A stretch of DNA of 64,000 nt from Candidatus Obscuribacter sp. (GCA_016712465.1 JADJQZ010000001.1:5477300-5541299); one strand, 5' to 3'; counted from the first letter of the stretch, positions 1,969 to 61,354 are shown. The notes: generated by a model not told the origin, from the sequence alone. Translations and numbers: made by a program.

Positions 1969-2001
1969 CTTCTTTCAAGCTATGCAGTTTCCAGTGCGGA
2001 A

Positions 2002-27728: not shown

Positions 27729-27736
27729 GACTCGAG
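27729..27736. repeat. Target-site duplication GACTCGAG (right copy)
   Basis: Identical 8-mer directly abutting both IS ends. Confidence 0.8.
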
Positions 27737-35033: not shown

Positions 35034-35046
35034 GGAGGCGGCCACT

Positions 35047-35928: not shown

Positions 35929-35930
35929 CC

Positions 35931-36686
35931 ATGGAAAAACTGGTGCTAACCACATTAATAATCGGTCTTGCCGTTCTTGGCATTCTGTGGTTCAAAATCA
36001 CAGATCAAACCATCGGAATGTTAACTCTCCTTTGTGTGGCAGTACTCTGCGCTGTCGTATGGCGTGGTGGCAGCTTCGAAATGCCTGGCGGAATAAAGGG
36101 ACAGTTACCGGAACCTCTCGCAGAAGATGTTGGAATAAAGCTTAAGCGGCTAAAGGAGAGTCCTGGATCAAAACTTCCGCCGGAAAAGAAACAAGTAATA
36201 AAGGGCATACTAAAGGACAGCATTAAACGGGGACAACTAAATGAATTCTTGGCTTCAAACAATATGTGTCCATCATTGACCAAGCTGAATTCCGATAGAT
36301 ATCGCGAAATAGGTCAAATAGACGAACTCTTGGCTCTTAGAGCGCTTTCCCTCGGTCTCGAAATAATGTTGAGAAACTATTGTACATGGGCAGATATTCA
36401 TTGGCCAGTGAGATCTCCAACTGTGAAGGAGCGCATCTTAGAACTGAAGAAACGTTTGATTCTTGACGACGATGCAGAACACAATTACTCGGAAATCTTT
36501 AGCATCATTCATAAAATCTGTGACTCAGGCGAGGCAATTACAAAAGGCGAAGCACTTTCGACTTGTCTTGAAAAGTCAGACGAGCTGATAAATGACTATG
36601 TAGATTGGCTACTGAAAGTATTCCATCCAACCAGTGTACAAAAGGAAATTGAAGACATGCGTAAACTGCTTGAGGACTGTCAGTAG
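35931..36686 (+). CDS. Membrane-anchored helical hypothetical protein
   Basis: The ATG at 35931 follows the upstream stop by 2 nt. Two N-terminal TM helices (LVLTTLIIGLAVLGILWF and MLTLLCVAVLCAVVW). Confidence 0.5.
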   Translation: MEKLVLTTLIIGLAVLGILWFKITDQTIGMLTLLCVAVLCAVVWRGGSFEMPGGIKGQLPEPLAEDVGIKLKRLKESPGSKLPPEKKQVIKGILKDSIKRGQLNEFLASNNMCPSLTKLNSDRYREIGQIDELLALRALSLGLEIMLRNYCTWADIHWPVRSPTVKERILELKKRLILDDDAEHNYSEIFSIIHKICDSGEAITKGEALSTCLEKSDELINDYVDWLLKVFHPTSVQKEIEDMRKLLEDCQ

Positions 36687-36903
36687 CACCAACGCAAAAT
36701 CAAAAATGTTCAAGCGGTCTAAAGCTGTTAACTGTTAGACTGCGACCAGACACCCCTTTCTCGGAAGCAAATCGAACCCAACTTTTTGTCGCATGTCAAT
36801 TTAGGAGTTTCAATAAGGCAATAATGGTTATGGTAAGTTTGCTGTGTCACCAACCAACTAAAGCAGTTCAAAAAAATAGCTGAGGATAGAGTGTGACACA
36901 CCC

Positions 36904-37452
36904 ATGGGACTAGACTCAGTCGAACTACTCTTGGCCATCGAGGAAGAATTCGGCGTCGAGATTCCCGACCATGATGCCGAGCGAATCACCACCGTAGGGG
37001 AGGCTTACGACTGGCTCAGAGCCACCCTGCACAGGACGCCCCCGGCCAAGTGCATCACGCAGAAAATGTTCTACAAGGTGAGACGGGCCCTGATCGAAAA
37101 CTATGGGCTATCCAAACAGTCAATCACGCTTGATGCGAAGATCAAAGATCTGGTGCCCGCGCAGGAACTAAAAGTGGCCTGGCCCTACCTCGACCTCTTT
37201 GCCGAACTGGATTTCCCCAAACTCGACAAAAACTGGTGGCCCATGGGGAGGCGCTTTAGCACAGATGAACTGACCTTGCGCGAACTGCTCACAGCCATGG
37301 CCACACTCAATGCAGAAAAGCTGCTTGTGGAACCCGGTTCAGATGAGGATATCTGGATAAGGTTGACAAAAGTTATTCAAGAGCAGCTCAATGTCAGTCT
37401 GCGAGAAATTCAGCCGGATGCCTCGTTCACTAAAGATTTGGGCATGGATTGA
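36904..37452 (+). CDS. Acyl-carrier-protein-like protein with a permuted or fragmentary domain order
   Basis: N-terminus [37 protein letters not shown] equals ACP helices II-IV including the Ser attachment motif. C-terminus [25 protein letters not shown] equals ACP helix I up to the DLG.D motif. Confidence 0.55.
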
Positions 37453-45713: not shown

Positions 45714-45849
45714 CGGCAAGGCAACACAAAGCAAAGCAAAACAGCAGCGGCAACCAACGCCGAGGCGGCAGCCTACCGGCCGCTGTAGGCCGAGCCCTTC
45801 CATTAAGGTATCCTTAGGCGATTAAATTGACAGGGCAAAAGCTCGCAGT

Positions 45850-45887
45850 CACCAACCGACCCTACCGACACCAACCGACCCCACCGA
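45850..45887. repeat. Two tandem 19-bp direct repeats CACCAACCGACCCYACCGA
   Basis: 45850-45868 and 45869-45887 differ at one position. They lie 21 nt upstream of the ATG at 45908. Confidence 0.85.
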
Positions 45888-45907
45888 CAAAAAGAGATGG
45901 CGCTCAG

Positions 45908-46087
45908 ATGAACGAAAAGCATTTTACGAAAGAGCAAATTCAGTACATTCTCAAGGAAGCGGAATCGGCAACGAACATCTACGAGATTTGCTTGAAGCAT
46001 GACATCTCCGAAAATACTTTGTACGAGTGGCTGGCCGAATACACTCCCGACAAAGTACAAAAGACCGGTTTCAATCTGCGTCAGTTT
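45908..46087 (+). other. IS3-OrfA-like helix-turn-helix segment in frame with the downstream propeller gene (likely a remnant)
   Basis: MNEKHFTKEQIQYILKEAESATNIYEICLKHDISENTLYEWLAEY resembles the HTH of IS3/IS911 OrfA proteins. It runs without a stop into the Tat-signal Met at 46088. Confidence 0.4.
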
Positions 46088-47686
46088 ATGCATGAAATCT
46101 TCAATGGCGGCATCACCCGCAGAGAGCTACTCTATGCAGGAGCCACAGGTATTGCCGGTTTTGCCGCCGGCAATATCTTCGCCATGGTCGGCAAAGTAAG
46201 AATGCCGGAAGTGCTCGGTCACAAAATAGAGGTGGAAGACGCATCCAAGTACAAGCAATCCAGTGAAGAGCTGGGCGACTACCTCTATCTTACGCCCCAG
46301 AAGCTGGGTGGCGGCACCCACGTCGTAGACTTCAAGCAGGGCATCACCCTGGCTTCCATCAGCTACTGGAATTATGGCGACTCCTGCCCCATCTCGCACC
46401 ATCTGTCAGCCTATCCATCCAGCAATCCCCGCAAAGGTTTTGAATTCGTCAATTCCACCCAGGGCGGCAAAAACGTCACCATGTACAGCATTCCCACCGA
46501 AATCGAAGAGCGCGGCTTGCTCGATACATGGGGGCAGGGTAATCACATTTACCGAGTCGAATTCGACGGCACCAAAATGGAATTGAAAGAAGACATCGCC
46601 AAAACCACCGGCATCGGGCTCGGAGTGCACATCACAATTTTTCCCGACGCCAAAGGTTTTGCCGCCGCCGATGGGCAAAAAGACATCTGCGCCTTTTTCG
46701 ATAGAGTGAGCGGCGATGGCAAAACTTCCGTGCTCAAAGCCTTTAGAGCCGACTGGATAGGCAAAGAGGCCGACGGCAACCTCAAAGACAACTGGCGCAA
46801 AGGCGGCAAACTGCGCATCGTAGAGCTGAACAAAGCGCCGGAAACCGGCAAGTACGATTATCAGGGCACCAGGGGCAATAAAATAGACTGGGAAATGGCG
46901 CCCATGGCTGAGAATCTAGTCTCGTCCGACGGTATTCCAGGGGCGGGCAAGAAAGGGCTGACGGGGCTGGATGCCGTGGTGCATCATCCGGGCAATAAGT
47001 ATTCGGCGCTCATCATTCGCATGCTCTCATGCGCCGTCATCGTCGACAGAGAGACATGGGAGCCGGTAGCCTGCCTGCACAACCCCGAGGGCTCGCCGGA
47101 CAACCTGAAAGTAACCAAATTGCATACTAATCCCAATACCTGGGAAATTGAATTCGCCGACGTAAAATGCGTCGGTCACGAAGCCGGCTTCTCTCCGGAC
47201 GGCAAATTCTTCACCATGATGAATAACATAGAACAAAACAACATGGCGGTATACGACACATCGAGCCCAGACCCGCGCAACTGGAAGCGTGTCACCTTCG
47301 TGAAAGATCCCGAATGGGTGGGCGAGTTCCCCAGCCCCTTTCACCTTTGTTTCTCTATGGACGGCAGCAAAATGTTTGTCTCGGTGATGCACGAGAAACC
47401 GGCCAAGAGCGGCTGCTGCGTGGTTGACACCAAGACCTGGAAGATAATCAAGAAATTCAAAAATATCGGCGTCGATTGCCAGACTATGGCAGTCTCCTAT
47501 GACGGCAAGTTTGTCTTCCAGATATTCAGCGGCTTCCAGAGACAAGAAAGCGGCGCCTTCGTCTTTACTCAGGATGACTCCCTGCGCCCCCTGGGCTTCC
47601 TGCCTAACTTCGGCGGGCACCACGACTGCGTCATTATTCCCACCAAGACCGAGCATATGAAGAACAGTCGCTGCACTACGCTCTAA
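46088..47686 (+). CDS. Tat-signal beta-propeller protein resembling the N-terminal CuZ domain of nitrous-oxide reductase or thiocyanate dehydrogenase; no CuA domain
   Basis: Twin-arginine signal MHEIFNGGITRRELLYAGATGIAGFAAGNIFA. His-containing blocks CPISHHLSAY, GNHIYRV, VVHHPGN, VGHEAGFSPDGKFF, SPFHLCFSMDGSKMF and GGHHDCVII resemble NosZ CuZ ligand blocks. The ORF ends right after the last block. Confidence 0.55.
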   Translation: MHEIFNGGITRRELLYAGATGIAGFAAGNIFAMVGKVRMPEVLGHKIEVEDASKYKQSSEELGDYLYLTPQKLGGGTHVVDFKQGITLASISYWNYGDSCPISHHLSAYPSSNPRKGFEFVNSTQGGKNVTMYSIPTEIEERGLLDTWGQGNHIYRVEFDGTKMELKEDIAKTTGIGLGVHITIFPDAKGFAAADGQKDICAFFDRVSGDGKTSVLKAFRADWIGKEADGNLKDNWRKGGKLRIVELNKAPETGKYDYQGTRGNKIDWEMAPMAENLVSSDGIPGAGKKGLTGLDAVVHHPGNKYSALIIRMLSCAVIVDRETWEPVACLHNPEGSPDNLKVTKLHTNPNTWEIEFADVKCVGHEAGFSPDGKFFTMMNNIEQNNMAVYDTSSPDPRNWKRVTFVKDPEWVGEFPSPFHLCFSMDGSKMFVSVMHEKPAKSGCCVVDTKTWKIIKKFKNIGVDCQTMAVSYDGKFVFQIFSGFQRQESGAFVFTQDDSLRPLGFLPNFGGHHDCVIIPTKTEHMKNSRCTTL

Positions 47687-48921
47687 TGAACACTCGCGCC
47701 GGAAGCAAAGCAAAGAGACTCTTTCTCAAATTGGCCTGCCAGAATTTGCTGCGCAAACCAACCCGCACCATGCTCTTGATCGCAGCAGTAGCCATGGTGA
47801 CAGGGTCCGTCTTTGCATCCACCATCGTCGGACGCGGCGTGCAGGCTTCCATGGAGAGAAGCTTTGCCAAAATGGGAGCGGATCTAATTGTGGTGCCGGC
47901 CCAGGCGCTGGTAAATATCACCAGCGCACTACTGACGGTGCAGCCCACGGAGGCCACTCTCGACACCACTCTGGCGGAGAAAATCAAGGCCATACCGGGT
48001 GTGGAAAAGGTAGCCACGCAAACTATCTATCAGATACCAATGATGGTGCACATGCCGGAACACAAGGCAAACCTGATAGCCTTTGCACCGGAGAGCGACT
48101 TCACCATCTTGCCCTGGCTCAAGGATAAGCCGGACAGACCACTGCGCAAAGGCGACCTGATAAGCGGTTCCAGGCGCGAGGAGACACTCGGGGAAGAACT
48201 GGAGCCCTGCGGCAGGGCCGCAAAAATATACGGCAAACTTGGCATAAGCGGCGTGGGCCCTCTCGACGATAATCTCTTTGCCAGCTATGAAACCGCTCAA
48301 TATCTGGCAGAGGGCACGGTAGAAGGCAAGCAGGCCATTGCCAACTTCGACCCGAAAAGATGTTCGGCCATACTGGTAAAGCTATCAACCGGCACCACGC
48401 CCGAGCAGGTCAGATTTGCCGTCTCGCAACTCAATGATGTGAAAGTGGTTATGGGTACCAACATAGTGACTTCCACCAGACAAACTACTTCCGCCCTGCT
48501 GCTCGGGCTACTGGGACTGGCTCTCATGCTCTTGCTTGGTGCATCAATTGTGCTGAGCTTGCTTTTCTCCGCCATTATTTCCGAACGCAAGAGAGAAATA
48601 GGGCTACTTTCCGCCATCGGTTCAAGGCGCTCGAACATAATCGGCATGTTTTTAGCGGAGGCTTGTCTGACCACAGGGCTGGGAGCCATTGGTGGTATCG
48701 TCCTCGGTGGCGCGCTGATAATGGTCTTTCAAAGATCTCTAATTTACTATCTGGAAACCTTGCAAATAGAATTTTACTGGTTTAGTGCCGCAGAAATTGC
48801 CCAAATAGCTTTACTTTGCATGGGTCTGACCATACTTTGCGGGCTACTAGGGGCCCTTGTGCCGGCCTGGAAAGTGAGCCGCGAAGAAGCTTACAGCCTC
48901 ATCCAGAGCGAGGGCGGCTAG
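47686..48921 (+). CDS. ABC transporter permease, FtsX/MacB type
   Basis: 411 aa. One N-terminal TM, a large extracytoplasmic loop, then three C-terminal TMs with a SERKREIGLLSAIGSRR-type FtsX motif. TAATG overlap with the upstream stop. Confidence 0.8.
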   Translation: MNTRAGSKAKRLFLKLACQNLLRKPTRTMLLIAAVAMVTGSVFASTIVGRGVQASMERSFAKMGADLIVVPAQALVNITSALLTVQPTEATLDTTLAEKIKAIPGVEKVATQTIYQIPMMVHMPEHKANLIAFAPESDFTILPWLKDKPDRPLRKGDLISGSRREETLGEELEPCGRAAKIYGKLGISGVGPLDDNLFASYETAQYLAEGTVEGKQAIANFDPKRCSAILVKLSTGTTPEQVRFAVSQLNDVKVVMGTNIVTSTRQTTSALLLGLLGLALMLLLGASIVLSLLFSAIISERKREIGLLSAIGSRRSNIIGMFLAEACLTTGLGAIGGIVLGGALIMVFQRSLIYYLETLQIEFYWFSAAEIAQIALLCMGLTILCGLLGALVPAWKVSREEAYSLIQSEGG

Positions 48922-48924
48922 ACC

Positions 48925-50352
48925 ATGGAAGTACAGGTCTCACAACTCTCCAAATCTTACGCCAGTGAAAACACCGGCAGTAGCGGTGCCGGCGGTAAAA
49001 CCGCCACACTGACCAAGACCGATGCGGTGCAAGAAGTGAATTTCACAATCGCCAGTGGAACTTTCCTGGCTATCGTCGGCCGCTCCGGCTCCGGCAAATC
49101 TACCTTGCTGGCCATGCTCGGCGGCATCTGCCGGCCAAGTAGCGGCAATATCAAACTGGGCGACAAGAGTCTCTGGGAAGAGAGCGAAAGTAAGCGCGCC
49201 GACCTGCGCAATAAAGAAATCGGCTACGTCTTTCAGTTTGCCAGCCTCATGCCTTCTCTCAGGGCCATAGATAACGTGGCACTGCCGGCGCTGGTTTCCG
49301 GTCTGCTCAGCGAGAAGGCGGCCTATGCCAGAGCCAGGGCCCTGCTTATTCAAGTAGGTCTGAATGAGCGCATCGACTCCTACCCGGGTGAGCTATCAGG
49401 TGGAGAGCAAAGACGTGTGGCCATAGCCCGGGCGCTCATCAACGCACCAAAACTACTGCTTGCCGATGAACCTACCGCCGACCTCGATGAAGAGACGGAA
49501 GCGGAGATTCTCAATCTGCTCATTGAGATAAAACAGGCTCACAATTTGACCATGATTCTGGTCACCCATAACAATGACATTGCCGCCCATGCCGACCGCG
49601 TGCTGAGCATGAAGAAAGGCCGGGCTACAATGAGCGACCAGCAGTCTGCCGCCGAACTGAACACAAGCAGGGAGAGGCTGGAGAATATTTTTGCCATCTC
49701 TTCCAAGCAGGTAGAAACCGAAAAAGTAAGCCTGGGTCTGGGCATCGATCGCTATGTGGGGCGCTTTGTACTGGTATTGATACCGGTGCTCTCTCTTATC
49801 TACATTATCAATCTGGCCCTGGCCGGCTACCAGCAAAGCCTCGCCACTGCCAGGCAGGAAGAACAGCAGGCCATGGAAGACCTGGCCATGAGTGATTTGA
49901 AGGCGGGAGTGAAGGCAATTAAAATGCTTGGGAACGACTCTTATGAGTTGGAAGTTTTCTTGCGCAATTCCAGGGGCGATAAGCCCATGTTTGTACTCAA
50001 GCCCGCTGTCAGAGTCTTTGTGCAACTGTCAAACAACTGGCTGGAAACGGCAGCAGAAGCCATAGACCCTCCCGGGCCTGATGTAATGCAGATCAAGGGC
50101 GAACAACTATTTAGATACAAGATAAAACCCACGGTGGCCGGCTATACTCAGTTGATTCCCTACTACATGCACGTGCGCATCACCAACGACATGCTCGTGA
50201 GCGGCAGTAAAACACCGAAAAAAGATCTAATCGAACGCAAAGACAGTTACTATGTCTATCTTAAGCCCTATGGCGTAGCCGACGAAGCCATCGCCGCCAA
50301 GCTAAAGTTTGCCGGTGCACCGCCTGTCTACTTACCGATGCCGCCCCATTAA
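48925..50352 (+). CDS. ABC transporter ATP-binding protein (MacB/LolD-like) fused to a TM helix and a ~170-aa extracytoplasmic C-terminal domain
   Basis: Walker [10 protein letters not shown], signature LSGGEQRRV, Walker [11 protein letters not shown] helix [22 protein letters not shown] followed by an unassigned domain. Confidence 0.8.
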
Positions 50353-50412: not shown

Positions 50413-51756
50413 TCATGAGATAAGTATCGCCCTCTCCAGAAAGACTTCCTTTGTTTCTGGAGAGATCCAGGTCCAAACGCCTTCCAGATGACCGTCACTG
50501 TCTATTTTGTAGAGTTTGACAAAATGCTGATCGTTGAGTTTGTTATCCCGAATAGTTCCCTTCGCCAATAACCATCTTCCGAAGCAGATACCGGCACCAA
50601 AATAGGTTCGCCCGTCCTCAAGTTTCCAGGACATATCATATAGAGCTTCTGTCACACTTGAACCAGTTTTTGTCGCGAATAATTGTCCCAGATAGGCATT
50701 TTCATCCTGCCCTACTATGCGATAGTGTTTGCCTAGGTGATTGTCGGTTTTGATTTTCACGACAGGAAGGTTGATCTTCGGCGGTTCTAGCGCACTTGTT
50801 AATGCAACGACGCGAACAGAAGTCTTTATCTGAATGTCGCCATACTGTGTGCGATACGGCTCGACCCGGAGTTCAATGCCCCCTGGATAGCGTTCGCCTG
50901 GCAGGTATATATCGGTTGCGGTTGAGTCGGCTAAAATGAGCGTTCCGCCGAGAGCAAGGGCAACGCCGCATTTCTCGCGCCTTTCGTCAGAATTCGTAAC
51001 AAGGAAAGTGTAGAGACAGCCGCTGACGTGCTTAAAGATCAGTCGGTCATACAGCATTTTTTGGAGCATAAAATCTGTATACACTCTGGTGTATTTGGAC
51101 AGAGTGTCTATCTTAAGCTTCTTAGCATCTAAATTATTGAAAATGCTCTCTCTCTCGGGCTCGAATTCGAATTGAGAGGAGAGCTTCGCGGACAACCCAC
51201 AAGCTTCTTTCAATAGTCTGATGAATGGTCCTGCCTTTGTGGAGTCTGCTAGTTCGCCAGGCCAGGTTGAAGTGAGTCTACTTAGAGAGTGATTACATTC
51301 TTGTTCTAGCAACTGAATGTCTTGGAGTGCTTTCACTATATGGGCCTTGGGATACGCTACGAGAGCAATGCTTCTCTGAAGGCTATTGCACAGTTCAATC
51401 AAGTCTATTGACCTGGCAATTTTGGTCTGTATTGAGGATGCATAGTCCTTGAGTGCTTGCTCTCCGTCTGGTTCTGTTGAAGCATTCATGCAGCGTATTT
51501 GAGCAGCTAGTTGCTCACACTTGGTTTGCTCGACTTCTATTGATTGGAGTATAGAGTTCAGTTCTGTCAGATAGGTTTCTTGATCTGAGGTGGACGAAGC
51601 GGTCGCCTTGTCAATGCCCTCAATTTGGGGGGTCATAGTCTCTAAGACGTAGATGTTTAACTGCTCTCTCCGAGAGTTAATCGCCAGATTGTCTAGAAAG
51701 AGCCCAACGTCCATTTTCACTGTGTCGGAAGTCGAAGATTCTGAATTGTTGTCCAT
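50413..51756 (-). CDS. Hypothetical protein with a helical N-terminal half and a beta-rich C-terminal half, divergent from the ATPase operon
   Basis: 447-aa ORF in an AT-richer segment. No family recognised. Weak resemblance to the N-terminal two thirds of the 52150-53649 product. Confidence 0.6.
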   Translation of the reverse strand: MDNNSESSTSDTVKMDVGLFLDNLAINSRREQLNIYVLETMTPQIEGIDKATASSTSDQETYLTELNSILQSIEVEQTKCEQLAAQIRCMNASTEPDGEQALKDYASSIQTKIARSIDLIELCNSLQRSIALVAYPKAHIVKALQDIQLLEQECNHSLSRLTSTWPGELADSTKAGPFIRLLKEACGLSAKLSSQFEFEPERESIFNNLDAKKLKIDTLSKYTRVYTDFMLQKMLYDRLIFKHVSGCLYTFLVTNSDERREKCGVALALGGTLILADSTATDIYLPGERYPGGIELRVEPYRTQYGDIQIKTSVRVVALTSALEPPKINLPVVKIKTDNHLGKHYRIVGQDENAYLGQLFATKTGSSVTEALYDMSWKLEDGRTYFGAGICFGRWLLAKGTIRDNKLNDQHFVKLYKIDSDGHLEGVWTWISPETKEVFLERAILIS

Positions 51757-52149: not shown

Positions 52150-53649
52150 GTGGCACACCTTCATCCTCAACGAAAGATTGAAGAGCGCCTTAAGAATCTG
52201 CAATTGCGAGCAGAGGTGCATTGGGTGCTGCAGCGGCTGCATGAAACTGGTTGTGGAACGATTAGCAGCTTGACGAACATGCTTAGCTTAGTTGAGGCTG
52301 ACGAACTCATTATCGAACGGCTTAGCTCGGCTCACCATTATTTTGACAAGCAGCTTGCCGAGATCCGAGCAAAGAAGCGGACGCTTGTTGAACTCAAAGA
52401 AATGGCACTCATTATTTGTGAAACATTGGTCAACGAGTCCTCAAAAATGAGCGCCGAGCGCTTGTTGGAAATTAGGGAGACTATGATTGATCGATTTATT
52501 TTGTGCCAGCAAAAGGAAGAGTATCGAACATTACGCATCAAAGGACCTATGGTTGATAAGGTCTCCTTCAAATGCCGAAACTCGTCCTATCCGACGACCA
52601 GGATTTTACTAGACATCCTGGAGGCGTGCCATGCAGAGTTTCGCGGCGGAAACGAGGATTTAAGCGACTTTTGGCGATGGTATTCCAAGGATGTAAGCAC
52701 AGAAGAAATCTGGTTCTATCATCATAGTGATTTCGAAAAGTGGAAGTGTATTTTCTTTCGAATCTCAGTCAGATCAAGTGGACGAGGAAGAACTCTCTAT
52801 CTGGAGAGTTTTGTTCCGTTTGGATATGGAAAGGACCCGGCCAATTATCAACTGGAAGCATCCTCAGTCTATCAACGTCCGGGCTGGACGCTTACGCTTG
52901 TTACATCCGAAACAACTTCAACCCAAACTACTGAAACGGAGCAGCAAAGTTACTCTACAAACAGGGGTGTTTCGGTAGGGGAAGGGCGCACATCAAACAA
53001 GAATACTACAGAGGGAGAGTCATCTGGATTGACAGAATCTTTGAATTGGGGCGTTGCAAGTGGGGAAACCTGGTCAAATACCAATTACTCCAGCATGACA
53101 CTAAACCCATTGTCAGCGAGCTCGGGCTCCAGTGCTGGCAGTAGCAGTTCGTTTAACCAGACTTTTTCTGGAGGTTCTGGCAAGAGCACCGCTAAGAATT
53201 ATTCAACGAGTCTTGGCGAGGCACTGAATTATCAAACTACATTGAACGACTCCATTGGGGAGGTAACCTCCTCTGGCATTTCCTTTACAAGCAGCAGGAG
53301 TCTTCAAGTCACTTGTTGGGCCTATGGGATCAATTTCGCCGTTAGCTCCAAGCAACATTTAGAGAAATGGAAAGAGAAAAATCAAGACGCTCGAGATCTT
53401 TACGATAGAGCTTGGGATCTGCTCAGTGAGCTATGCGAGGCGGAAATGTCTCATTTGGACTCAATCTCTTATACCGCAAAGCCCGCTGATTCTCCGTCGG
53501 CATTAGGCTATCTCGAAAAGGTTAAGAGCATTGTCCCAGTGGCTTGTCGCAATATAGGGAGCCAAATTTCCGAGGTGCCTATACAGTCTTCCGTAGAGAA
53601 ATATCTGGGTGCGCCGCCGCTTCATAACGATTACAGTTCTGAAGACTGA
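52150..53649 (+). CDS. Hypothetical protein with a helical N-terminus and a ~140-aa Ser/Thr/Asn/Gly-rich core
   Basis: 499-aa ORF. GTG start with GGAG 8 nt upstream. First gene of a tightly spaced four-gene operon. Confidence 0.65.
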   Translation: MAHLHPQRKIEERLKNLQLRAEVHWVLQRLHETGCGTISSLTNMLSLVEADELIIERLSSAHHYFDKQLAEIRAKKRTLVELKEMALIICETLVNESSKMSAERLLEIRETMIDRFILCQQKEEYRTLRIKGPMVDKVSFKCRNSSYPTTRILLDILEACHAEFRGGNEDLSDFWRWYSKDVSTEEIWFYHHSDFEKWKCIFFRISVRSSGRGRTLYLESFVPFGYGKDPANYQLEASSVYQRPGWTLTLVTSETTSTQTTETEQQSYSTNRGVSVGEGRTSNKNTTEGESSGLTESLNWGVASGETWSNTNYSSMTLNPLSASSGSSAGSSSSFNQTFSGGSGKSTAKNYSTSLGEALNYQTTLNDSIGEVTSSGISFTSSRSLQVTCWAYGINFAVSSKQHLEKWKEKNQDARDLYDRAWDLLSELCEAEMSHLDSISYTAKPADSPSALGYLEKVKSIVPVACRNIGSQISEVPIQSSVEKYLGAPPLHNDYSSED

Positions 53650-53675
53650 GATCACGGTCTTCTGGGGGAGGGCAA

Positions 53676-56534
53676 GTGCCGGGCAAAATCAATTGCAGAG
53701 AGTATTGTGGAGTCAAGATCAAGACTTTGGCAGACTTTCTTACTGACCACACGCTTCTTCAGGAGAAGCTCTCACAGCGACTACCGGAGCACTATGAACG
53801 ATGGACGCAGTTTGTGAAACGCCTATCTGTTTGGAAGAAGTCCGTGTTTTGCTTGCGATTCAACGGCCAACCGGCTGACGGAACTGTCGGTGTTTATTTG
53901 TTGGCGAAACCAAGTGATCCCAATGACCGCGATTGTTTACAAGCAGACTTAGAGTTTGCTCTTTCAGCATATGGAATTCTTCCAGACGTTCAAGATACAA
54001 AACACTGTCTTTCTCTTTTGTCGCCTAAGCAGATAGAAGAATTGCCATTGAGCGATCTTGGAAGGAAGAGGATAAGTCTCGAAGTAGAGAGGGAGTTTGG
54101 TAAAGTCCTGGCCCCTGGGCTTTGCAACAATTCAGTGTTTGCAGCCGTTATGCAAGATGCTCCAACACTCTTGTTCGAGCACGAACAAACTCTGCGCGAC
54201 TTCCTCAAAGATGAGGGCTTAAATCTAGATATATCAGAGAAGAGTGATGCAAAGGGTTGGCTCCCCAATCTTTGGGCGGGACCCAGTGGTCCATTTTTGA
54301 TTCCGTTTAAGGCTCTTATGTCCACTCGCAGCCCTGTTCAAATTTCGGTATATCTTCAACCACACACGATGACTGTGCCTGAGCGAATCTGGATAAAGAG
54401 GCTTGCCCTCTTTGCACAAACTGAAGTACAGCAAACATCTCGCTTCAAGGATCCACTGATGGCAGTAGCTTCTCAGCAGGCTATTAATGTGGTGCGGCGG
54501 CTGGAAGACGGAGCATTTGCGACCTGCGCCGTTGTAGCGGCGCTCGATGGAAACACGGGAGCCGCGCAGAGCGTCGCTCATACTTTGCAGGCACTGTGCC
54601 TTCGAAGTAGAGAAGAAAGTAACGGCAAAGAGGGAGAGTGGCTGGCAACTGCTCGTCTTCACACTAGCGAGAGTGATACGGTTGACGAGGCGAGGCAGTC
54701 GCATGAGAGTCTATCATTTCCGAAATGGTGCGATGTTCCAGGAATGCCTCAGGCTGTTAGAAAACTGCCTTACTTGTCAGATGCAAGAGGCGCGGCTACC
54801 GTGTTCCGCCTGCCGGTGAGTGTCAGAGGTGGTGTCGCTGGCGTCTCCGTGGAGCAACCTATTCCAGACTTTACCCCGGGACTGCGGGAGGAAGAGGAAA
54901 GTAAGAACAGCTTATTAATCGGCAAGTTTCAATCAGGTGGATACGCTTACGTGCCCGTCGATGATTTCGCGAAGCATACCTTAATAACGGGATTTACCGG
55001 CAGCGGGAAGACTCAGACTGTCATGAACCTGATCCATCAACTCTGGTCGAAATTCAAAATTCCATTTTTAGTCATTGAATCTGCAAAGACAGAGTACAGA
55101 GGACTTCTTAACTTTTCCGGCTTTGAATGCGCGGAAGGAAAAAAGAATTTATTGGTGTATACTCTGGGAAACGAGAGTCTCGTCCCATTTCGCCTGAACC
55201 CATTTCAGTTACTACCGGGTGTCCGAGCTGAAGCTCACATTAATCGCTTGCAGAGTTGTTTTGAAGCAACTCTTCCTCCTTTCGGACCAATGTCATCAAT
55301 TCTTGAGCAGTCTTTGATAGAGGTATACCGCGATCAGGGCTGGATGATGACCGACGAAGGCGTCTCAGAAGAGGAGCTGTCGAAGCAAGGAGAATTTTCT
55401 TCGCGCCGGTACCCAAACATGTCTGAGTTTGCAAAAAAGCTTGAAGAGGTAGCAGAGAGCCGAAAGTACCAAGGCGAGAATCGAGCGACTGTTTTGGCAG
55501 CAGTGAGTGGCCGAATTCGTCCGCTCACACGAATAATGAGTAACAGCAAGGGAATGATGCTGGATACTGAGAGTACTAGACCATCAGCTGCTATGCTATT
55601 CTCGACACCTTCGATACTTGAAATGAACGACCTGAATATTCAGGATAAAGCCCTTGTGTCGATGTTTCTCCTGACACTCCTACGAGAGCATCGGGAGCTT
55701 GAACATAAAAACAAGTCCAAGCCTGGCTTGCAGCATGTTACCGTTATTGAAGAAGCACACAATGTGCTGGAGAATGTACGTTCCTATGGCAGCATAGATG
55801 GCGCTGAATCAGATATCCGCTACAAGGCAGTGCAGTCCTTCTGTAGTATGCTCGCTGAAGTACGAGCATTGGGAGAGGGATTAATTATCGCCGACCAGAG
55901 TCCAGAGAAGTTGGCGCCTGATGCTATGCGCAATACAAACATTCAGATTGCCCACCAGCTTCGTGATGCTAGGGATCGTCAATCTATAGCAAACACGATG
56001 ACTATGTCAGAGGAACAACGTGACTATCTAGGTAAGCTTAAGCCTGGATATGCAGCTGTGTTTTACACTGGTCTCCAGCGCGCCAGTTTTGTCAAAGTGC
56101 CTCGTTTCGACAGGCCAGAGTTATTTAAAGCACAAAAGAAGACCGACGGGGTACCATCGGACAAAGAAGTAAGAGATTATATGGCTGATGAGGTGGAGGA
56201 CGTTAGAGAGTTAGTACGTCCCTTCATTGGGTGCTACGGGTGCGGACATATTGAAGAATGCAGCTACAAATGGTCTTCTCGCAACTTGGTGTCGATGCTT
56301 AGCGTTAGCGAAGAGCAAGAGTTCGTAGACGCATTCATCACAGATGTCCCAGATGATAAACGTTTTGCGATGACAGCAGAGTTTTTGCGAAACAAACTCC
56401 CGCTCGGAGCTGACAGAGATCGGCAGTGGTGCCTTCTCCTACATTTAAAGCACAGGTTTTTGCGAAAAGCGAGTGAGGGTGGCATTTCAGATGAATCACT
56501 ATTTCGTGTCTTTTGCAACAATGTGGTTGATTAA
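53676..56534 (+). CDS. HerA/FtsK-superfamily (DUF87-type) P-loop ATPase with a ~430-aa unassigned N-terminal region
   Basis: Walker A GFTGSGKTQ (54990-55013), Walker B VTVIEEAHNVL, and LIIADQSPEKL..NTNIQIAHQL. 952 aa. Cys cluster CYGCGHIEEC near the C-terminus. Confidence 0.8.
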   Translation: MPGKINCREYCGVKIKTLADFLTDHTLLQEKLSQRLPEHYERWTQFVKRLSVWKKSVFCLRFNGQPADGTVGVYLLAKPSDPNDRDCLQADLEFALSAYGILPDVQDTKHCLSLLSPKQIEELPLSDLGRKRISLEVEREFGKVLAPGLCNNSVFAAVMQDAPTLLFEHEQTLRDFLKDEGLNLDISEKSDAKGWLPNLWAGPSGPFLIPFKALMSTRSPVQISVYLQPHTMTVPERIWIKRLALFAQTEVQQTSRFKDPLMAVASQQAINVVRRLEDGAFATCAVVAALDGNTGAAQSVAHTLQALCLRSREESNGKEGEWLATARLHTSESDTVDEARQSHESLSFPKWCDVPGMPQAVRKLPYLSDARGAATVFRLPVSVRGGVAGVSVEQPIPDFTPGLREEEESKNSLLIGKFQSGGYAYVPVDDFAKHTLITGFTGSGKTQTVMNLIHQLWSKFKIPFLVIESAKTEYRGLLNFSGFECAEGKKNLLVYTLGNESLVPFRLNPFQLLPGVRAEAHINRLQSCFEATLPPFGPMSSILEQSLIEVYRDQGWMMTDEGVSEEELSKQGEFSSRRYPNMSEFAKKLEEVAESRKYQGENRATVLAAVSGRIRPLTRIMSNSKGMMLDTESTRPSAAMLFSTPSILEMNDLNIQDKALVSMFLLTLLREHRELEHKNKSKPGLQHVTVIEEAHNVLENVRSYGSIDGAESDIRYKAVQSFCSMLAEVRALGEGLIIADQSPEKLAPDAMRNTNIQIAHQLRDARDRQSIANTMTMSEEQRDYLGKLKPGYAAVFYTGLQRASFVKVPRFDRPELFKAQKKTDGVPSDKEVRDYMADEVEDVRELVRPFIGCYGCGHIEECSYKWSSRNLVSMLSVSEEQEFVDAFITDVPDDKRFAMTAEFLRNKLPLGADRDRQWCLLLHLKHRFLRKASEGGISDESLFRVFCNNVVD

Positions 56535-56569
56535 GAATGGTTTTGTAGCCCTGATATAGGGAAGCTTAT

Positions 56570-58024
56570 ATGTCAGATGAAAAAATGATAGACGGGCAGA
56601 TGGAGAATTCTTCTGAAGCTGACCTCAGAACAAAGGAGAAGATTGGAGCAGCTCTTGCAAGTAATAGTAGGGAGTCAATTCCAGATAGTCCTTGGGAGAA
56701 AGCCGGTGGAGAGAAGGCCGGTGGGAAGAACCTGGAGCGTCGGCTCAGCGGTGAAGACTCGAAATTAGAGTATAGGCAGAATCAACAGATCGGCGAAGCT
56801 GAGTTCTTGCGTAGCACGGGAAAATTTAGTGACAGGAATCTTTCTCGTGTAGTGGAAGCAATTGCGAAGTTACCACCGGATAAACAGGCCCTTGTCCTTG
56901 GTGCAGGGGTTGATGCATTTAGCAAAGAAGCCAGAAAACAAGGACTATCTACCCTAATTGGTACTGTAGCCGGATTTGGTGATGGGTTACAGAACCTTGT
57001 TCGGGTGGCTGCGACACCTGGCAGTATGGTTCGTGAAGGTGTTCAATTTGGTCAAGACTTGCTCCTTGACACCCCTGTGGCTATTGAGAAAGCGAACAAG
57101 GCTCGGTCAACGCTCTCCCAGCTCCTCGTCAATGGCGTAAGGGTTTGGGAGGTTGCGGACAGATATGCAGGTTCGCTTGAAACCGCAGCGAAGTCTGGTG
57201 ATTTTGCGAAGGGATTGCGAGATATCTCAAGGTTTGGCAATCTACTAAATGATCGGTGGAACGGGCTAAGTGTTGAGCAAAGGGCGCAGTTTGCTTCGAA
57301 ACATTTGACAGAACTAGGCGCGACTTTGGGTGGCGGACTCCTTGCTTCGAAACTAGACAAATTAGAAAGAATCACTGTCACGTTAGAGGAGCTGGGTACG
57401 GCAGCGAAATCTGCTGGACGGGGGGCGCAGCTTCGCGCCGAAAAGGTTTTCGACAGAATTCTTGATGAAATGTTTCCGCAGCCTCTTCCTCAAGCTGGTG
57501 GCAGGATTTCCGCTGGACCATTAAAGCCAGCGCCTGATTCGGCCAGAGAGCAAATGATGGCGATGGCGCCGTTCTTCGAGCAAGGGCAGAAGAGAGCTCT
57601 AAACGGAGGTGCTAAGAGAGCAGCGAAAGTGACAGGTAAGTCCGAAGAAGAGCTTCGGAAGGAGCTAAAAACCGATCCTGATTATCTTGAGAAGGCTACG
57701 AATGGTCAACTTATATACATGGAGAAACAATATCGAGAGATTTACCTGTCAGCGCATCCACAATACAGAAACTTCAGTAAACCATTTGAGGTTCACCACA
57801 GGATTCCGCAGGACGTCTTGACCAGACATCCCAAACTCTTCAGCCACAAGGAAATACATGACATTCGGAATCTCGTTGGTATTCCCCGTGACGCGGGAGT
57901 TCATGGCGGAATAAAGACTAAATGGAATGAGTTTTTCGAGACTCATCCAAGTCCTACTAAAGAGCAGGTCATTGAGTTCGCTGTGAAAATTGACAAAAAG
58001 AACGGGAGACACTACCTGAAATGA
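56570..58024 (+). CDS. Polymorphic-toxin-like protein with a C-terminal xHH (AHH/SHH/LHH-type, HNH/EndoVII fold) nuclease domain
   Basis: C-terminal FEVHHRIPQDV..(HH at 57794-57799)..IRNLVGIPRDAGVHGGI..W. Helical N-terminal ~380 aa without a signal peptide. Confidence 0.6.
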   Translation: MSDEKMIDGQMENSSEADLRTKEKIGAALASNSRESIPDSPWEKAGGEKAGGKNLERRLSGEDSKLEYRQNQQIGEAEFLRSTGKFSDRNLSRVVEAIAKLPPDKQALVLGAGVDAFSKEARKQGLSTLIGTVAGFGDGLQNLVRVAATPGSMVREGVQFGQDLLLDTPVAIEKANKARSTLSQLLVNGVRVWEVADRYAGSLETAAKSGDFAKGLRDISRFGNLLNDRWNGLSVEQRAQFASKHLTELGATLGGGLLASKLDKLERITVTLEELGTAAKSAGRGAQLRAEKVFDRILDEMFPQPLPQAGGRISAGPLKPAPDSAREQMMAMAPFFEQGQKRALNGGAKRAAKVTGKSEEELRKELKTDPDYLEKATNGQLIYMEKQYREIYLSAHPQYRNFSKPFEVHHRIPQDVLTRHPKLFSHKEIHDIRNLVGIPRDAGVHGGIKTKWNEFFETHPSPTKEQVIEFAVKIDKKNGRHYLK

Positions 58025-58473
58025 AGTACTTTCAGATCTGTCCGCAGGTTGCAGGCGTCTGTGGAGATGAAACCGTATGTGATGATTGGTCTAGTCGCCC
58101 AGTCGTGATTCGCAAGCTGCAGTTTGAGTTAGAGTCATGGCCTGAAGACGATTTAATTTTGGCTACGGTTGGAGGGTACGCAGGAACTAGCAGGCTTGCG
58201 GAGGCAATCAAGAAGGCTGAACTCACCGGTATAGAGTTCGATCGACTTGAGATGATAAAAGGTGACCAATTCTGGCTTCAAGAAGAAGAGCACGCAAATG
58301 AAAAGATTCCAGAGTACAGGTGGTTCAAATTTACAGGCGAGCCTGGCGTCGATGATTTCGGAATCATCGGGAAACCCGTGGCTTTACCATTGACCGTTTC
58401 CGAACGGGCGTTGAAGATATTGAGACAGTTCAATATGAATAATCTGCGCACCAAAGGCTTTCGAGTCAAGTAG
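58021..58473 (+). CDS. Putative cognate immunity protein (Imm11/DUF1629-like pattern)
   Basis: ATGA start/stop overlap with the toxin gene. 150 aa. The ..ILATVGGYAGTSRLAEAIKKAELTGIEFDRLEMI.. block resembles Imm11-type immunity proteins. Confidence 0.5.
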   Translation: MKYFQICPQVAGVCGDETVCDDWSSRPVVIRKLQFELESWPEDDLILATVGGYAGTSRLAEAIKKAELTGIEFDRLEMIKGDQFWLQEEEHANEKIPEYRWFKFTGEPGVDDFGIIGKPVALPLTVSERALKILRQFNMNNLRTKGFRVK

Positions 58474-58588: not shown

Positions 58589-61354
58589 TTAAAAGCCGGA
58601 AAATGAAGTTGGTGCTTTCGACTTAAGACCGGTTGGCTCGGCACAAGCTTGCAGAAGTTTCTTGCTGCCTGAAACTTCCGTCATCACCGGATAGTTCCCA
58701 AAGGCATCTTCGACCTCCGGCTTCTGTGCAGGAGGGGCGGAAACCGGCGGCAAGACATAATAATGACCTTCAAAAGTGTACGGCTGCTGAGAGTGTTGCT
58801 GAGCAACTATCTCGGCATCCCAAACAGGGTACTCCGGGGCCTTGAACCAGACCCGCAGATGTTCCGCCGCTGTCTCCTTCATGTTTTGTCTGGCCATGGC
58901 TTCTATCATTAAAATATACAGCGGCGAACTGGGGACTTTACTACTCGTTTCCGGAGTGAGCTGCCGTGATCTTAGAAAGGCAGGCACTTCCTTAGCACGG
59001 TGGTTTCTGGTCAACAGGTCACAATAGGCCACAGTCACCACCTGGTCAGACCAGTAATCTCCATCTTTATCGACAATTTCAAAGTATCGCTTGTAAGTTT
59101 TCATGGCGCTGGCATCATCACCGACCGAAACATAACAAGCTGCCAGTTGCGCCAGGATTCCTTGCAATTTAGGTCCGTGCTTACCGTTGGCTTGCTCCAG
59201 AATGGCCAGTTGCCGCTCGAGCAGAGGAATAGCCTTCTTCTTGTTCGGATCGCCCATCACCACAGACGACTCCCGCCTGAGAGTAAGGGCTGAATCCACC
59301 AGATAAGAGAGTTGAGATACGGGAGTTTGCGAGGTAGATTCCGTGACCGGTACGAATTTTAAGTAGCCGGCGGCAGCCTCCAGGTCTCCAGCCAGTAGCT
59401 CATCGCAACCCAGCCGTAGATAGGTTTTGGCATTGGGCCACAAAAGATGCAGCCGGGCAAGCTTTTCATTGAGCGGCTTCAGTGCCGGGTTATCTTCCGA
59501 GTCATCGCTCGCCCCTAAGGCATAGTACCAGAGAGACCGGGCCAGATAACTCTTCGCTTTAGCCGGCGGCAGGCTAAGCCCCAACTTAAGATTTGCCTCT
59601 GCCGCTAACTCCTTCAACATTGCGTCATCAAGATTGGCATCATTGAATCTGTTGGCGGTCTCTCCAGCCAGGCTGGCGCAGGCCTGATACTTCTTCGCTT
59701 TCATCAGGTCTCGCAGTTGTGCCATAGTCTTCTGCGCATCTGCGCTTCTTAACTCTTTGTCAGGCATGTGCAAATAAAGCTGACTCATATTGTCGAGAAG
59801 CCCGAGGGCATAGGAGCGCATGTGCGGTCCATGATTGAAATACTCAAAAGCTTTTTCATACTCATGAATGGCGTCTTCAGCCAACTTATCACGCTTAACG
59901 CCCATTCCACTGTCCAGGGCTTGCACCCGGTAAGAATCGGCCAGTTCCCAGTGCAAATCGGCAAGCAGACCGGGAGGCTTTCCAATCAATTCGGCTTGCT
60001 TGATTGCTTCTTTATAGTTTGACTGAGCCAGGGGCCAATCTACAAAACGAGCTATCTGAGCCTCATCAATCAGCTTCTGCAACTGTATTTCACCAATATA
60101 CTTAACGGCGAAGAGCCCCAGCAGCAAGTAGGCAGTTAAAGCCGCCGTGATTTTGCGATCAAAGCGATCAAGGAAACGAAAAAGCAGAAGTTTCTCCGCT
60201 TTGCGCGGCAGTCTCTTAACCTTCTCTATCTTGGCGGCATCAAAACATTCAATAATAATATTGAGCGCCCTCTTCAGCTCATTGACGCTGCCAAAGCGCT
60301 TAGCCGGTTTCTTATGCAGGCAGCGTTTGACCACGCAGTCGAGAAGCTTGAGGGCACAATGTTCGGGAGACTCGGGACTGTACTGACCGGCCATTTCATA
60401 AAGCACATCAACGGCGAGATTGCCTGCCTGTGGCGGGCGACCGACCAGGGCTTCATACATGATGCAACCAAGAGAGTAAATATCCGAACGAGCATCTACA
60501 TGTGAGCGATCAAGACATTGCTCGGGGCTCATATAAAACGCGTTCTGAACGGCATCGACAGGCATGCCGAAATCATAGACTTTAAGAGCTTCGTCATCTA
60601 ACTCATCGCCTGCAAAAACAATCTTCTCCGGCGTGAGGTTGCCGTGCATCAGATTGCGAGAATGCGCGTCAGCAAGCACATCGCAGATCTGAACAAAGAC
60701 CGAAAGAAAATACGCCACGTCCAGTCTCTTGCGCCGTTTTATAAGATCAGAAAGCGACTCACCCTTGAGCCAGTCTGATACCACATAAGGTGTGCCCTCA
60801 TCACTGATGCCATTCTCGTAAACCGTCACATGATTGGCGTGAGTGAAGTCTCGTGCTTGACCCGCTGCTTTCTGAATCTCCTTGATCTGACCGCTATCAC
60901 TGATGCGCTCATTGAAAATTCGCAAGGCTAGAAAGCCTTCCAGATCTATATTCCTGGCGGCATAGGTGGTGCTTATCGAGTCCTTCTGGATTTCAAATAG
61001 TAGTTCGTAGTTGAGAAACTTCTTTGCCGGTAGTGCAGGAGACTGCGAATCTCTTGCCTCCACTTGCCCTTCTGCCTGCCCGCCTGGCTCGCTCACTTCT
61101 GCCCCTTCCGCCAGGGCCGGACAGCATTGGCTCGACTGCGGCTCCGGCGATAGCGACTGCGGCTCCGGCGATAGCGACTGCGGCTCCGGCAATAGCGACT
61201 GCGGCTCCGGCGATAGCGACGCCGGCTCAGACATGGATGGTTCTGCTATCAAGGAAACGGTTTTCTCACCCTCAACAATTTTGGGCGATTTAGCTAACTC
61301 GGCTAGAGGCGCCGCTTCACGGGCGGAGCCCCTGCCCATTTGTTTTCTAGGCAT
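58589..61354 (-). CDS. Ser/Thr protein kinase-like protein (predicted pseudokinase) with a TM helix and a long TPR-like C-terminal region
   Basis: Hanks-type blocks DFG, YMSPEQ and DIYSLGCIMYE are present. The beta3 Lys is Arg (LALRIF, 60920-60922), the catalytic loop reads HGNLTPEK instead of HRDLKPxN (60638-60646), and the Gly loop is absent. Confidence 0.75.
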   Translation of the reverse strand: MPRKQMGRGSAREAAPLAELAKSPKIVEGEKTVSLIAEPSMSEPASLSPEPQSLLPEPQSLSPEPQSLSPEPQSSQCCPALAEGAEVSEPGGQAEGQVEARDSQSPALPAKKFLNYELLFEIQKDSISTTYAARNIDLEGFLALRIFNERISDSGQIKEIQKAAGQARDFTHANHVTVYENGISDEGTPYVVSDWLKGESLSDLIKRRKRLDVAYFLSVFVQICDVLADAHSRNLMHGNLTPEKIVFAGDELDDEALKVYDFGMPVDAVQNAFYMSPEQCLDRSHVDARSDIYSLGCIMYEALVGRPPQAGNLAVDVLYEMAGQYSPESPEHCALKLLDCVVKRCLHKKPAKRFGSVNELKRALNIIIECFDAAKIEKVKRLPRKAEKLLLFRFLDRFDRKITAALTAYLLLGLFAVKYIGEIQLQKLIDEAQIARFVDWPLAQSNYKEAIKQAELIGKPPGLLADLHWELADSYRVQALDSGMGVKRDKLAEDAIHEYEKAFEYFNHGPHMRSYALGLLDNMSQLYLHMPDKELRSADAQKTMAQLRDLMKAKKYQACASLAGETANRFNDANLDDAMLKELAAEANLKLGLSLPPAKAKSYLARSLWYYALGASDDSEDNPALKPLNEKLARLHLLWPNAKTYLRLGCDELLAGDLEAAAGYLKFVPVTESTSQTPVSQLSYLVDSALTLRRESSVVMGDPNKKKAIPLLERQLAILEQANGKHGPKLQGILAQLAACYVSVGDDASAMKTYKRYFEIVDKDGDYWSDQVVTVAYCDLLTRNHRAKEVPAFLRSRQLTPETSSKVPSSPLYILMIEAMARQNMKETAAEHLRVWFKAPEYPVWDAEIVAQQHSQQPYTFEGHYYVLPPVSAPPAQKPEVEDAFGNYPVMTEVSGSKKLLQACAEPTGLKSKAPTSFSGF
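61134..61217. repeat. Four tandem 21-bp units encoding EPQSLSP heptapeptide repeats in the kinase-like protein N-terminus
   Basis: Units GACTGCGGCTCCGGCGATAGC at 61134, 61155, 61176 (one substitution) and 61197. Confidence 0.9.

Follow-up and report, generated by a model that had tools for sequence, protein, structure and literature searches.

The locus described here lies in a stretch of 64,000 nucleotides (nt) from Candidatus Obscuribacter sp. (GCA_016712465.1 JADJQZ010000001.1:5477300-5541299), which we call the window and from whose first letter positions are counted. It is a four-gene operon, g1 to g4 (Table 1), encoding in order a protein with a core rich in Ser, Thr, Asn and Gly, a large P-loop ATPase of HerA/FtsK type, a protein with a predicted nuclease domain at its C-terminus, and a small putative immunity protein. 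The initial annotation proposed that these genes form an undescribed conflict or export system, and made this depend on their occurring together in other genomes. They do so in part: the ATPase with variable toxin genes downstream of it recurs widely, while g1 is specific to one subclade of the ATPases and g3 and g4 are found also without the ATPase.

The four genes on one strand and the spacing first reported for them can all be read directly from the sequence. The TGA stop of g1 (53647-53649) is followed after 26 nt by the GTG start of g2 at 53676, which is preceded by GGGGGAGGG, counted as a Shine-Dalgarno sequence. From the end of g2 at 56534 to the ATG of g3 at 56570 there is a gap of 35 nt, with AGGGAAG as Shine-Dalgarno sequence ahead of the g3 start, and the stop of g3 and the start of g4 share the 4 nt ATGA (AAATGAAG). 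No intrinsic-terminator-like site or hairpin was found in the g1-g2 or g2-g3 gap, and across the whole region the counts of promoter-like and terminator-like sites were not above those for shuffled sequence. The NCBI annotation of Candidatus Obscuribacter sp. has identical proteins of 952, 484 and 499 amino acids (aa). With regard to base composition, the operon was thought to be more AT-rich than its surroundings, and it does have 47.9% GC, where the window as a whole has 51.4% and its first 26 kb 54.1%; this is a weak sign of foreign origin, because 14.5% of equal-length windows have the same GC content or lower. One of these is a second AT-rich stretch at 27000-37000, with 47.1% GC and minima of 43-45%, at or below the level of the operon. 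There is no tRNA gene, as might mark the border of a mobile island, within the 64-kb window.

Table 1. Coordinates of the operon, its main sequence features and its neighbours in the window, and of three loci elsewhere that are discussed in the text (ORF, open reading frame)
Feature	Position	Strand	Remarks
g1	52150..53649	+	499 aa, GTG start; ORF call
Ser/Thr/Asn/Gly-rich core of g1	52888..53304	+	about aa 247-385
g2	53676..56534	+	952 aa, GTG start; ORF call
Walker A of g2, GFTGSGKT	54990..55013	+	aa 439-446, K445
Walker B of g2, VTVIEEAH	55737..55760	+	aa 688-695
Cys cluster of g2, C853-x2-C856-x5-C862 ... C919	56232..56432	+	alignment A1, 27 homologues
g3	56570..58024	+	484 aa, ATG start; ORF call
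Predicted nuclease domain of g3	57722..58024	+	aa ~385-484, EVHHRIP at 407-413
g4	58021..58473	+	150 aa; ORF call
g0	50413..51756	-	447 aa, divergent from g1
HTH_Tnp_1 ORF (619 aa), MacB-like permease (FtsX/MacB_PCD), ABC ATPase, in that order	45827-50352	+	
Ser/Thr protein kinase with TPR repeats	58589-61354	-	921 aa, convergent to g4
L087, g3-g4 homologue pair with relaxase and VirD4/TraG	9001-11366		
L088, g3-g4 homologue pair with relaxase and VirD4/TraG	9001-11327		
L089, B-like ATPase locus	NZ_CP032437.1 40013-48796		Lactococcus cremoris conjugative plasmid pB26B

The product of g2 is a P-loop ATPase of the HerA/FtsK superfamily. The P-loop, EEAH and DQSP motifs on which this was first based are present, and G439-K445 of Walker A, E692, E693, A694 and H695 of Walker B, and D740-Q741-S742-P743 are invariant in 27 homologues. 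In Pfam the protein matches DUF87, the HerA central domain (E 9.9e-6, 26.2 bits against a cut-off of 23.2), and, below threshold, FtsK_SpoIIIE (22 bits against a cut-off of 24), TrwB and HerA_C. PADLOC gave mad8 at 1e-17 and many HerA models, all as partial matches, the NCBIfam models for CedD, HerA and TraD scored far under their cut-offs (13-22 bits against 800-970 for the HerA equivalogs), and a sequence search of the PDB led to HerA 4d2i. An AlphaFold2 (AF2) model built with the 27 homologues has a mean predicted local distance difference test (pLDDT) score of 82.7, and with it Foldseek retrieved HerA (4d2i, 9x1m), VirB4/TrwK, Sir2-HerA, DUF4297-HerA, TdpA and DndH-C at E values of 1e-11 to 1e-14, with HerA 4d2i at 2e-14 (TMt 0.57). 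By fold the core is nearer to HerA, VirB4 and DndH than to FtsK. The superpositions of low root-mean-square deviation span ~405-480 columns, which is the ATPase portion only, and the N-domain (aa 1 to ~400), an alpha/beta domain that AF2 models confidently, is covered by none of the well-superposed PDB matches. The Cys-rich tail noted at the outset is real, with C853, C856 and C919 invariant and C862 conserved in 90% or more; the CX2CX(4-6)C spacing is present in only part of the family, and from the conserved cysteines the cluster is possibly a Zn or Fe-S site. The family comprises 467 clusters at E<=1e-5 among the candidates scored, from Cyanobacteria, Planctomycetota, Verrucomicrobiota, Chloroflexota, Acidobacteriota and others. 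There is also a match to phrog_7035, of unknown function, and in line with this Gp156 of Bacillus phage G and S5MSQ0 of Bacillus phage JL (~800-900 aa) in BFVD align with most of the g2 model (TM 0.33-0.46), the alignments extending beyond the ATPase core.

The surroundings of the ATPase were surveyed in 80 genome loci with g2 relatives, selected through two peptide patterns, in which ORFs were called by a simple longest-ORF script and then clustered. A recognisable toxin-type gene was found within the next three same-strand positions downstream of the ATPase in 34 of the 80, representing at least eight phyla, a count that like the p value given below is over loci that share kinship and are not phylogenetically independent. 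The toxins are of WHH, LHH, ParB-like, HExxH and papain-like types, often with a SUKH immunity gene alongside. The conserved theme is the ATPase followed by a variable effector with or without an immunity gene, and preceded by a variable helper that is often membrane-bound, the recurrent membrane partners being proteins with two transmembrane helices (2TM), proteins with a Zn-ribbon or a DnaJ domain and a transmembrane helix, and dynamin. Effectors of the same clade have N-terminal leaders in common even where their catalytic tips differ, and the N-termini of proteins at the first position after the ATPase are richer in acidic residues than those of other ORFs of the same loci (16.8% against 10.9%) and also more polar (p 8e-10).

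The clades differ in what accompanies the ATPase. In clade B (L065-L084, from Latescibacterota, Clostridia, Neobacillus, Eggerthellaceae and a Woesearchaeote) the order is a dynamin-like GTPase, a 2TM protein, the ATPase, a nuclease and a SUKH or other small protein, with matches to WHH/colicin-DNase at 1e-31, LHH at 1e-18 and SUKH at 2e-16. A B-like version on the Lactococcus cremoris conjugative plasmid pB26B has two genes of the dynamin family, two small genes, a gene for a 1076-aa g2-related ATPase, one for an HNH endonuclease and one of 125 aa; this is a dairy plasmid, and the lactococcal plasmidome defence study makes no mention of the operon. Clade C (Acidobacteriota, Desulfobacterota and others) has Hsp70 and a Zn-ribbon/J-domain/transmembrane protein upstream, and ParB_N-like, D..DxK or HExxH proteins downstream. 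Chloroflexota loci have a Zn-ribbon transmembrane protein upstream and variable genes downstream, such as GNAT with a C39-like peptidase, and those of Planctomycetota and Verrucomicrobiota have a 2TM protein of ~500 aa upstream. In Pyrinomonadaceae (L019 and L047) the ATPase is 49% identical to g2, bears an insert of the kind discussed below, and has downstream of it an acidic protein of 118 aa, a WHH nuclease (5e-17) and a SUKH protein (4e-21); in L019 a 1306-aa Type IIG restriction-modification (RM)-like gene with the NPPY methyltransferase motif lies 45 nt upstream of the ATPase-WHH-SUKH unit. Convergent to the unit are a transmembrane/Zn-ribbon GTPase (705 aa) and an Hsp70 (689 aa), a pair that recalls the conflict systems with GTPase and Hsp70 described by Kaur et al. 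2020; the RM-like gene and this pair belong to the segments L019 2990-6910 and 11492-15678 (L047 equivalent). Among the closest relatives of g2 the downstream genes again vary: in L085 there is a protein of 398 aa with the motif D..IDRK, in L086 a relative of it that shares its N-domain only (44% identity over this common domain), and in L006 a PEAG-rich protein with a small C-terminal domain. No toxin gene was found downstream of the ATPase in L005, the other Obscuribacterales locus, and there is no g3 or g4 homologue in the 80 ATPase loci.

The family of g1 is rare and essentially unannotated, with 29 representative clusters at E<=1e-3 among 1.84 billion in an exhaustive HMMER search; a word-index search, swamped by the low complexity, retrieved g1 alone. 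The N-terminus is a coiled coil, and the sole PDB profile matches are to coiled coils; g1 has no Pfam match. A conserved core carries the motifs RxQGPxV, LWRW, IWLYHH..KWKCxFFRI and LESYVPFGxGxDPAxY (alignment A4), and a conserved C-terminal helix the motif HLxxWxxxNxDA. The Ser/Thr/Asn/Gly-rich core is present as first reported, and in the family as a whole is a length-variable stretch of ~140-170 aa with alternating T/S/G at both ends. In L006, L085 and L086, which have the closest relatives of g2 (50-56% identity), a g1 homologue is the gene immediately preceding the ATPase, and in L005 two vWA genes separate the upstream homologue from it; in the P0004 contig a 521-aa gene corresponds to g1 in size and position. 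g1 is thus a partner specific to one ATPase subclade and not universal, being found only beside the closest relatives of g2.

Sister ATPases have a Ser/Thr-rich segment of their own, an insert of ~100 aa at the tip of a helical hairpin in the N-domain, at a site corresponding to ~aa 253-260 of g2. It is present in 13 of the 120 best g2 homologues and in all of clade B, and in some clade-B ATPases is a hydrophobic glycine-zipper, which suggests that this region of the machine faces the membrane. The presence of such inserts explains why the NCBIfam model NF033849 'serine-rich protein' matches both the Ser-rich part of g1 (E 3e-6, 24.8 bits) and the ATPase part of g2 (81.1 bits), both far below its cut-off of 650 bits. 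Across the family the segment is therefore found in cis, as an insert, or in trans, as g1, and the two may be functionally equivalent. Homology between the g1 segment and the inserts was considered and rejected, the likeness being one of composition only (hhalign probability 10%; hidden Markov model E 0.006-0.6). Kinship of g1 with the ATPase N-domain or with the c10/c1 membrane partners was likewise rejected, as hhalign shows compositional similarity and no homology.

In the case of g3 there are 12 homologues excluding itself, ten of which are aligned with it in alignment A2. The C-terminal ~125 aa are highly conserved, with H409, H410, H426, H430, N434 and H445 invariant. AF2, working from a shallow alignment, gives a strand at 406-410 (EVHHR), a strand at 435-439 (LVGIP) and a helix at 445-458 with pLDDT 70-92, and H409/H410, N434 and H445 fall on strand, strand and helix. 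The LHH, WHH and AHH derivatives of the HNH fold have the same strand-strand-helix layout, the xHH type being recognised by an HH dyad ending the first strand, an Asn, and a His on the following helix in a beta-beta-alpha-metal fold (Zhang et al. 2011). The assignment as an xHH nuclease made at the outset is plausible on these grounds, but no curated model matches g3: alone it has no Pfam or PDB match, AHH, LHH and WHH in Pfam included, and a PDB profile search with the nuclease domain gave noise only. DUF2380 (PF09533) is matched weakly by 3 of 7 family members, g3 not among them, the best E of 0.002 being below threshold. Comparison of the domain with WHH and LHH sets by hhalign was negative, as was that of WHH with LHH, so that the test falls short of power, and Foldseek on the whole model was uninformative because confidence is confined to the C-terminal module, the N-terminal 330 residues being of low confidence. 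Judged by the motif, the modelled layout and the weak DUF2380 matches in the family, the C-terminus of g3 is probably a DNase of HNH/EndoVII fold (xHH type). The N-terminal and central region is helical, with an acidic and probably disordered N-terminus; there is no lipobox visible in the sequence, and no relation of the N-terminus to the N-domains encoded downstream of the ATPase in L085 and L086 was found.

DUF2380 is the Myxococcus SitA6 toxin family, and in its member pMF1.20 the nuclease is neutralised by the neighbouring pMF1.19 (PMC6091211; PMC12077181), the pair being a post-segregational killing module that stabilises plasmid pMF1 (PMC6091211). The arrangement of g3 and g4 is similar and is itself conserved. 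Three other contigs have a g3 homologue whose end likewise overlaps by 4 nt the start of a gene for 153-192 aa, making four loci in all; identity to g4 is 67% for the partner gene in L087 and 54% for that in L088. Since both the layout and the g4 homologues recur, g4 is seen as a conserved partner of g3, and we infer that it is the cognate immunity protein; the recurrence of the pair also marks it as a mobile toxin-immunity cassette. g4 matches phrog_32682 (function unknown) at 1e-18, gave no tblastn match in 50,697 GenBank phage records, and has no match in Pfam even at E 10; the Imm11 / double-CXXCG (PF09535) profiles matched none of three g4-family members even at E 10. Like g3, it belongs to a family that is essentially unannotated. 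In L087 and L088 the pair is beside genes for a relaxase and a VirD4/TraG coupling protein, with no g2-like ATPase adjoining, which suggests that conjugative machinery may be a further vehicle or route for these toxins. A gene with a weak J-domain match lies in between in L088. Compared with g3, its homologues next to VirD4-type ATPases have an additional leader at the N-terminus (alignment A2), as expected if the N-terminus specifies the route of delivery.

We favour, tentatively and at somewhat less than even confidence, the reading that these genes represent a variant of a system for toxin deployment that is built around the ATPase and widespread, most likely acting by export. ATPase-driven deployment is preferred because the layout follows the grammar of polymorphic-toxin and secretion loci, for which EssC of the type VIIb secretion system (T7SSb) and VirD4 are precedents. 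The components are all of known kinds (ATPase of the HerA/FtsK type, HNH-type toxin, immunity protein). On this model g2 would form a HerA/FtsK-type ring ATPase as the conserved motor or hub, g3 would be its effector with a C-terminal HH…N…H DNase, g4 would bind and neutralise g3 in the producer cell, and g1 would be a subclade-specific accessory subunit giving the Ser/Thr/Asn/Gly-rich segment in trans. The g2 ring would take hold of the N-terminal region of g3, pull it off g4 with the power of ATP, and hand it over for release, most likely by export to competitor cells, a task that falls to FtsK-type ATPases in type VII secretion and to VirD4-type ATPases in type IV. A wider claim, which we regard as doubtful, is that the g2 family is a previously unrecognised class of ATP-driven toxin-delivery machine, in bacteria of at least eight phyla and at least one archaeon, with helper modules that suit their envelopes. 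A HerA-like ring would in each case thread effectors with acidic leaders off their immunity proteins and export them. The helpers (dynamin with the 2TM protein, Hsp70 with a membrane J-protein, Zn-ribbon transmembrane protein, g1) would then be interchangeable, and the window would hold the g1 variant with a new xHH-type DNase.

Several observations weigh against deployment by export, and some of these favour action within the cell. The translations of g1 to g4 were read by eye, no prediction being run, and show no transmembrane segment, signal peptide or outer-membrane component. Obscuribacter is a relative of cyanobacteria and presumably has two membranes. Many loci of the Hsp70 clade have no obvious immunity gene, which fits gated intracellular effectors better than exported toxins, and extra toxin-immunity pairs looked for downstream in L066, L070 and L073 proved to be Sel1-repeat and pyridoxal-phosphate-enzyme/JAB genes instead. 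The neighbours are typical of defence islands, with the Type IIG RM-like gene in L019, two vWA genes, PP2C, a protein kinase and Fic near the ATPase of the P0004 contig, the vWA genes of L005 and the kinase with TPR repeats in the window. The solved close structural relatives of g2 in the Foldseek search are all DNA translocases or defence scaffolds, the top matches being HerA of defence complexes, in keeping with the HerA and mad8 matches in PADLOC. Cys clusters of the CX2CX5C type are known from DNA enzymes. The locus might thus act by abortive infection, with the g2 ring as sensor or scaffold, like HerA in Sir2-HerA and DUF4297-HerA, and infection freeing g3 from g4. The ring might sit on phage DNA or respond to a phage protein, g3 would destroy phage and host DNA, and the Ser/Thr-rich segment of g1 could be regulatory, for example through multi-site phosphorylation by neighbouring kinases. 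We rate this reading nearly level with export, if by itself rather unlikely: immunity proteins of the SUKH or g4 type and effectors with leaders and variable tips are hallmarks of toxins used against other cells (Zhang et al. 2011), membrane partners, dynamin and membrane-anchored J-proteins recur in the family, and no PADLOC system model spans the gene set. Export is slightly favoured over abortive infection inside the cell.

The assignment of g3 as a nuclease comes from motifs, a shallow AF2 model and sub-threshold Pfam matches, and this too must be set against toxin deployment. So must the occurrence of g3-g4 homologues in three contigs without a g2-like ATPase, two of them beside relaxase and type IV coupling protein genes, since the adjacency to g2 could then be incidental. 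An autonomous toxin-immunity or addiction cassette would simply have been inserted downstream of a g1-g2 unit that served DNA translocation or repair, say. Such a history is in keeping with the post-segregational killing by a DUF2380 nuclease and its immunity partner, with the absence of g3 or g4 homologues from the surveyed ATPase loci, and with L005, where no toxin follows. Nevertheless the 35-nt gap with its Shine-Dalgarno sequence and the lack of a terminator-like hairpin in either gap speak against it, and chance insertion is hard to credit because toxin genes hold that position in so many of the loci, those of the nearest sister clade included. Chance adjacency is thus possible for this single locus, leaving the family-wide pattern unexplained, and overall we think it unlikely. 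That the genes belong to a system already described (HerA-NurA, Nezha, DUF4297-HerA, a VirB4/VirD4 ATPase, or type VII EssC) is highly improbable. The ATPase fold is shared with these systems and there are weak sequence matches, which leaves some room for this, but no profile or fold match places the gene set in any of them. None of the HerA partners said initially to be missing is adjacent: NurA was not found in g0, g1, g3, g4 or the flanks with Pfam and NCBIfam, nor SIR2 or DUF4297 in the operon or flanks with PADLOC and Pfam. Relaxase and other context genes of L087 and L088 gave only a weak P-loop match in the window by tblastn, and no other gene of a type IV secretion system (T4SS) is present in the operon or flanks. 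The products of g1, g3, g4 and the flanking genes match no PADLOC model and none for T4SS or type VII secretion. There is no FHA or WXG100 match in Pfam, and g2 has a single ATPase domain and no multi-ATPase architecture. The low NCBIfam scores for HerA, CedD and TraD, and the ~400-aa N-domain outside the well-superposed PDB matches, also set g2 apart.

Upstream of the operon, g0 has no match in Pfam, PADLOC, NCBIfam or PHROG. Its C-terminal 200 aa resemble, weakly (22% identity, E 1e-4), a 608-aa protein encoded divergently beside the g1-g2 pair of L085, and g0 is a possible accessory gene of the operon. The L085 segment concerned (897-3971, minus strand) encodes besides this g0-like protein a polytopic membrane protein, part of which resembles a J-domain (DnaJ 5e-5, HPE not HPD), an echo of the J-domain membrane proteins of the Hsp70 clade. 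The ABC ATPase directly upstream of the divergent g0 has an unassigned C-terminal extension of ~230 aa. At the other end the kinase convergent to g4 has tandem SPEPQSL repeats at its N-terminus; large kinases with WD40 or TPR repeats, or sets of kinase, PP2C and vWA genes, are also near the ATPase in L003, L013, L051 and the P0004 contig.

If the link between ATPase and toxin is functional, it would be a new use of FtsK/HerA-type motors in microbial warfare, either as a new secretion route for polymorphic toxins or as a new HerA-based immunity armed with a toxin-immunity pair. The proteins of ~900-1100 aa labelled 'ATP-binding / DUF87', a family of at least 467 clusters, would then have a function, as would the NF033849 proteins. 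It would also account for orphan WHH, LHH and SUKH cassettes that have no known trafficking domains, and tie dynamin-like GTPases and dedicated Hsp70/J-protein pairs to the handling of toxins. The versions on the Lactococcus plasmid and in Neobacillus are in hosts that should be more amenable to genetics.

With regard to known systems, we found no description of this gene combination in the literature searched (Zhang 2011, 2012; Kaur 2020, 2021; the lactococcal plasmidome study), and none in full-text searches of dynamin or Hsp70 combined with HerA and toxin/immunity genes, though it may have been mentioned earlier. Nezha, DUF4297-HerA and HerA-NurA have the same ATPase core fold and likewise place a HerA-type ATPase beside an effector that damages nucleic acid. 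They differ in that the effector is SIR2, DUF4297 or NurA, and not an HNH-type toxin with an immunity protein as it would be here, and their HerA has a short N-terminus with only the HAS-barrel where g2 has its long N-domain and an extra Cys-cluster tail. Eleos/LeoABC and DynA have dynamin-like GTPases, as do the clade-B ATPase-toxin operons, whereas the window has no dynamin gene. To our knowledge Eleos has no HerA-like ATPase and no toxin-immunity pair. NF033849 ('ser_rich_anae_1', ~1163 aa) represents clade-B ATPases with the internal Ser-rich insert and has no assigned function; in the window a different protein, whose conserved core is unrelated, carries the Ser/Thr-rich segment instead. 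The SitA6/DUF2380 toxins are His-rich nucleases followed by a small cognate immunity gene, as is predicted for g3, the g3-family match being weak (PMC6091211, PMC12077181), but g3 has a long helical N-terminal region and no lipoprotein signal, and g4 does not match Imm11/double-CXXCG. The VirD4 coupling proteins are of the same superfamily as g2 and are the neighbours of g3-g4 homologues in L087 and L088, but g2 lacks their N-terminal transmembrane helices, its TrwB match in Pfam is below the cut-off, and the window has no T4SS genes. From T7SSb, g2 differs in having no FHA domain, transmembrane helices or tandem ATPases and no WXG100, LXG, EssA, EssB or EsaA genes beside it, and the dynamin, Hsp70/DnaJ and g1 modules of g2-family loci are not known in type VII systems. 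It is nevertheless T7SSb, with its LXG or EsaD nuclease toxins and cognate immunity proteins, that has an ATPase of the FtsK/HerA superfamily, EssC, beside polymorphic nuclease toxins of WHH, LHH and AHH type with SUKH-type immunity, and its toxins have a constant N-terminal region and variable C-terminal tips, as is found here (Zhang 2011).

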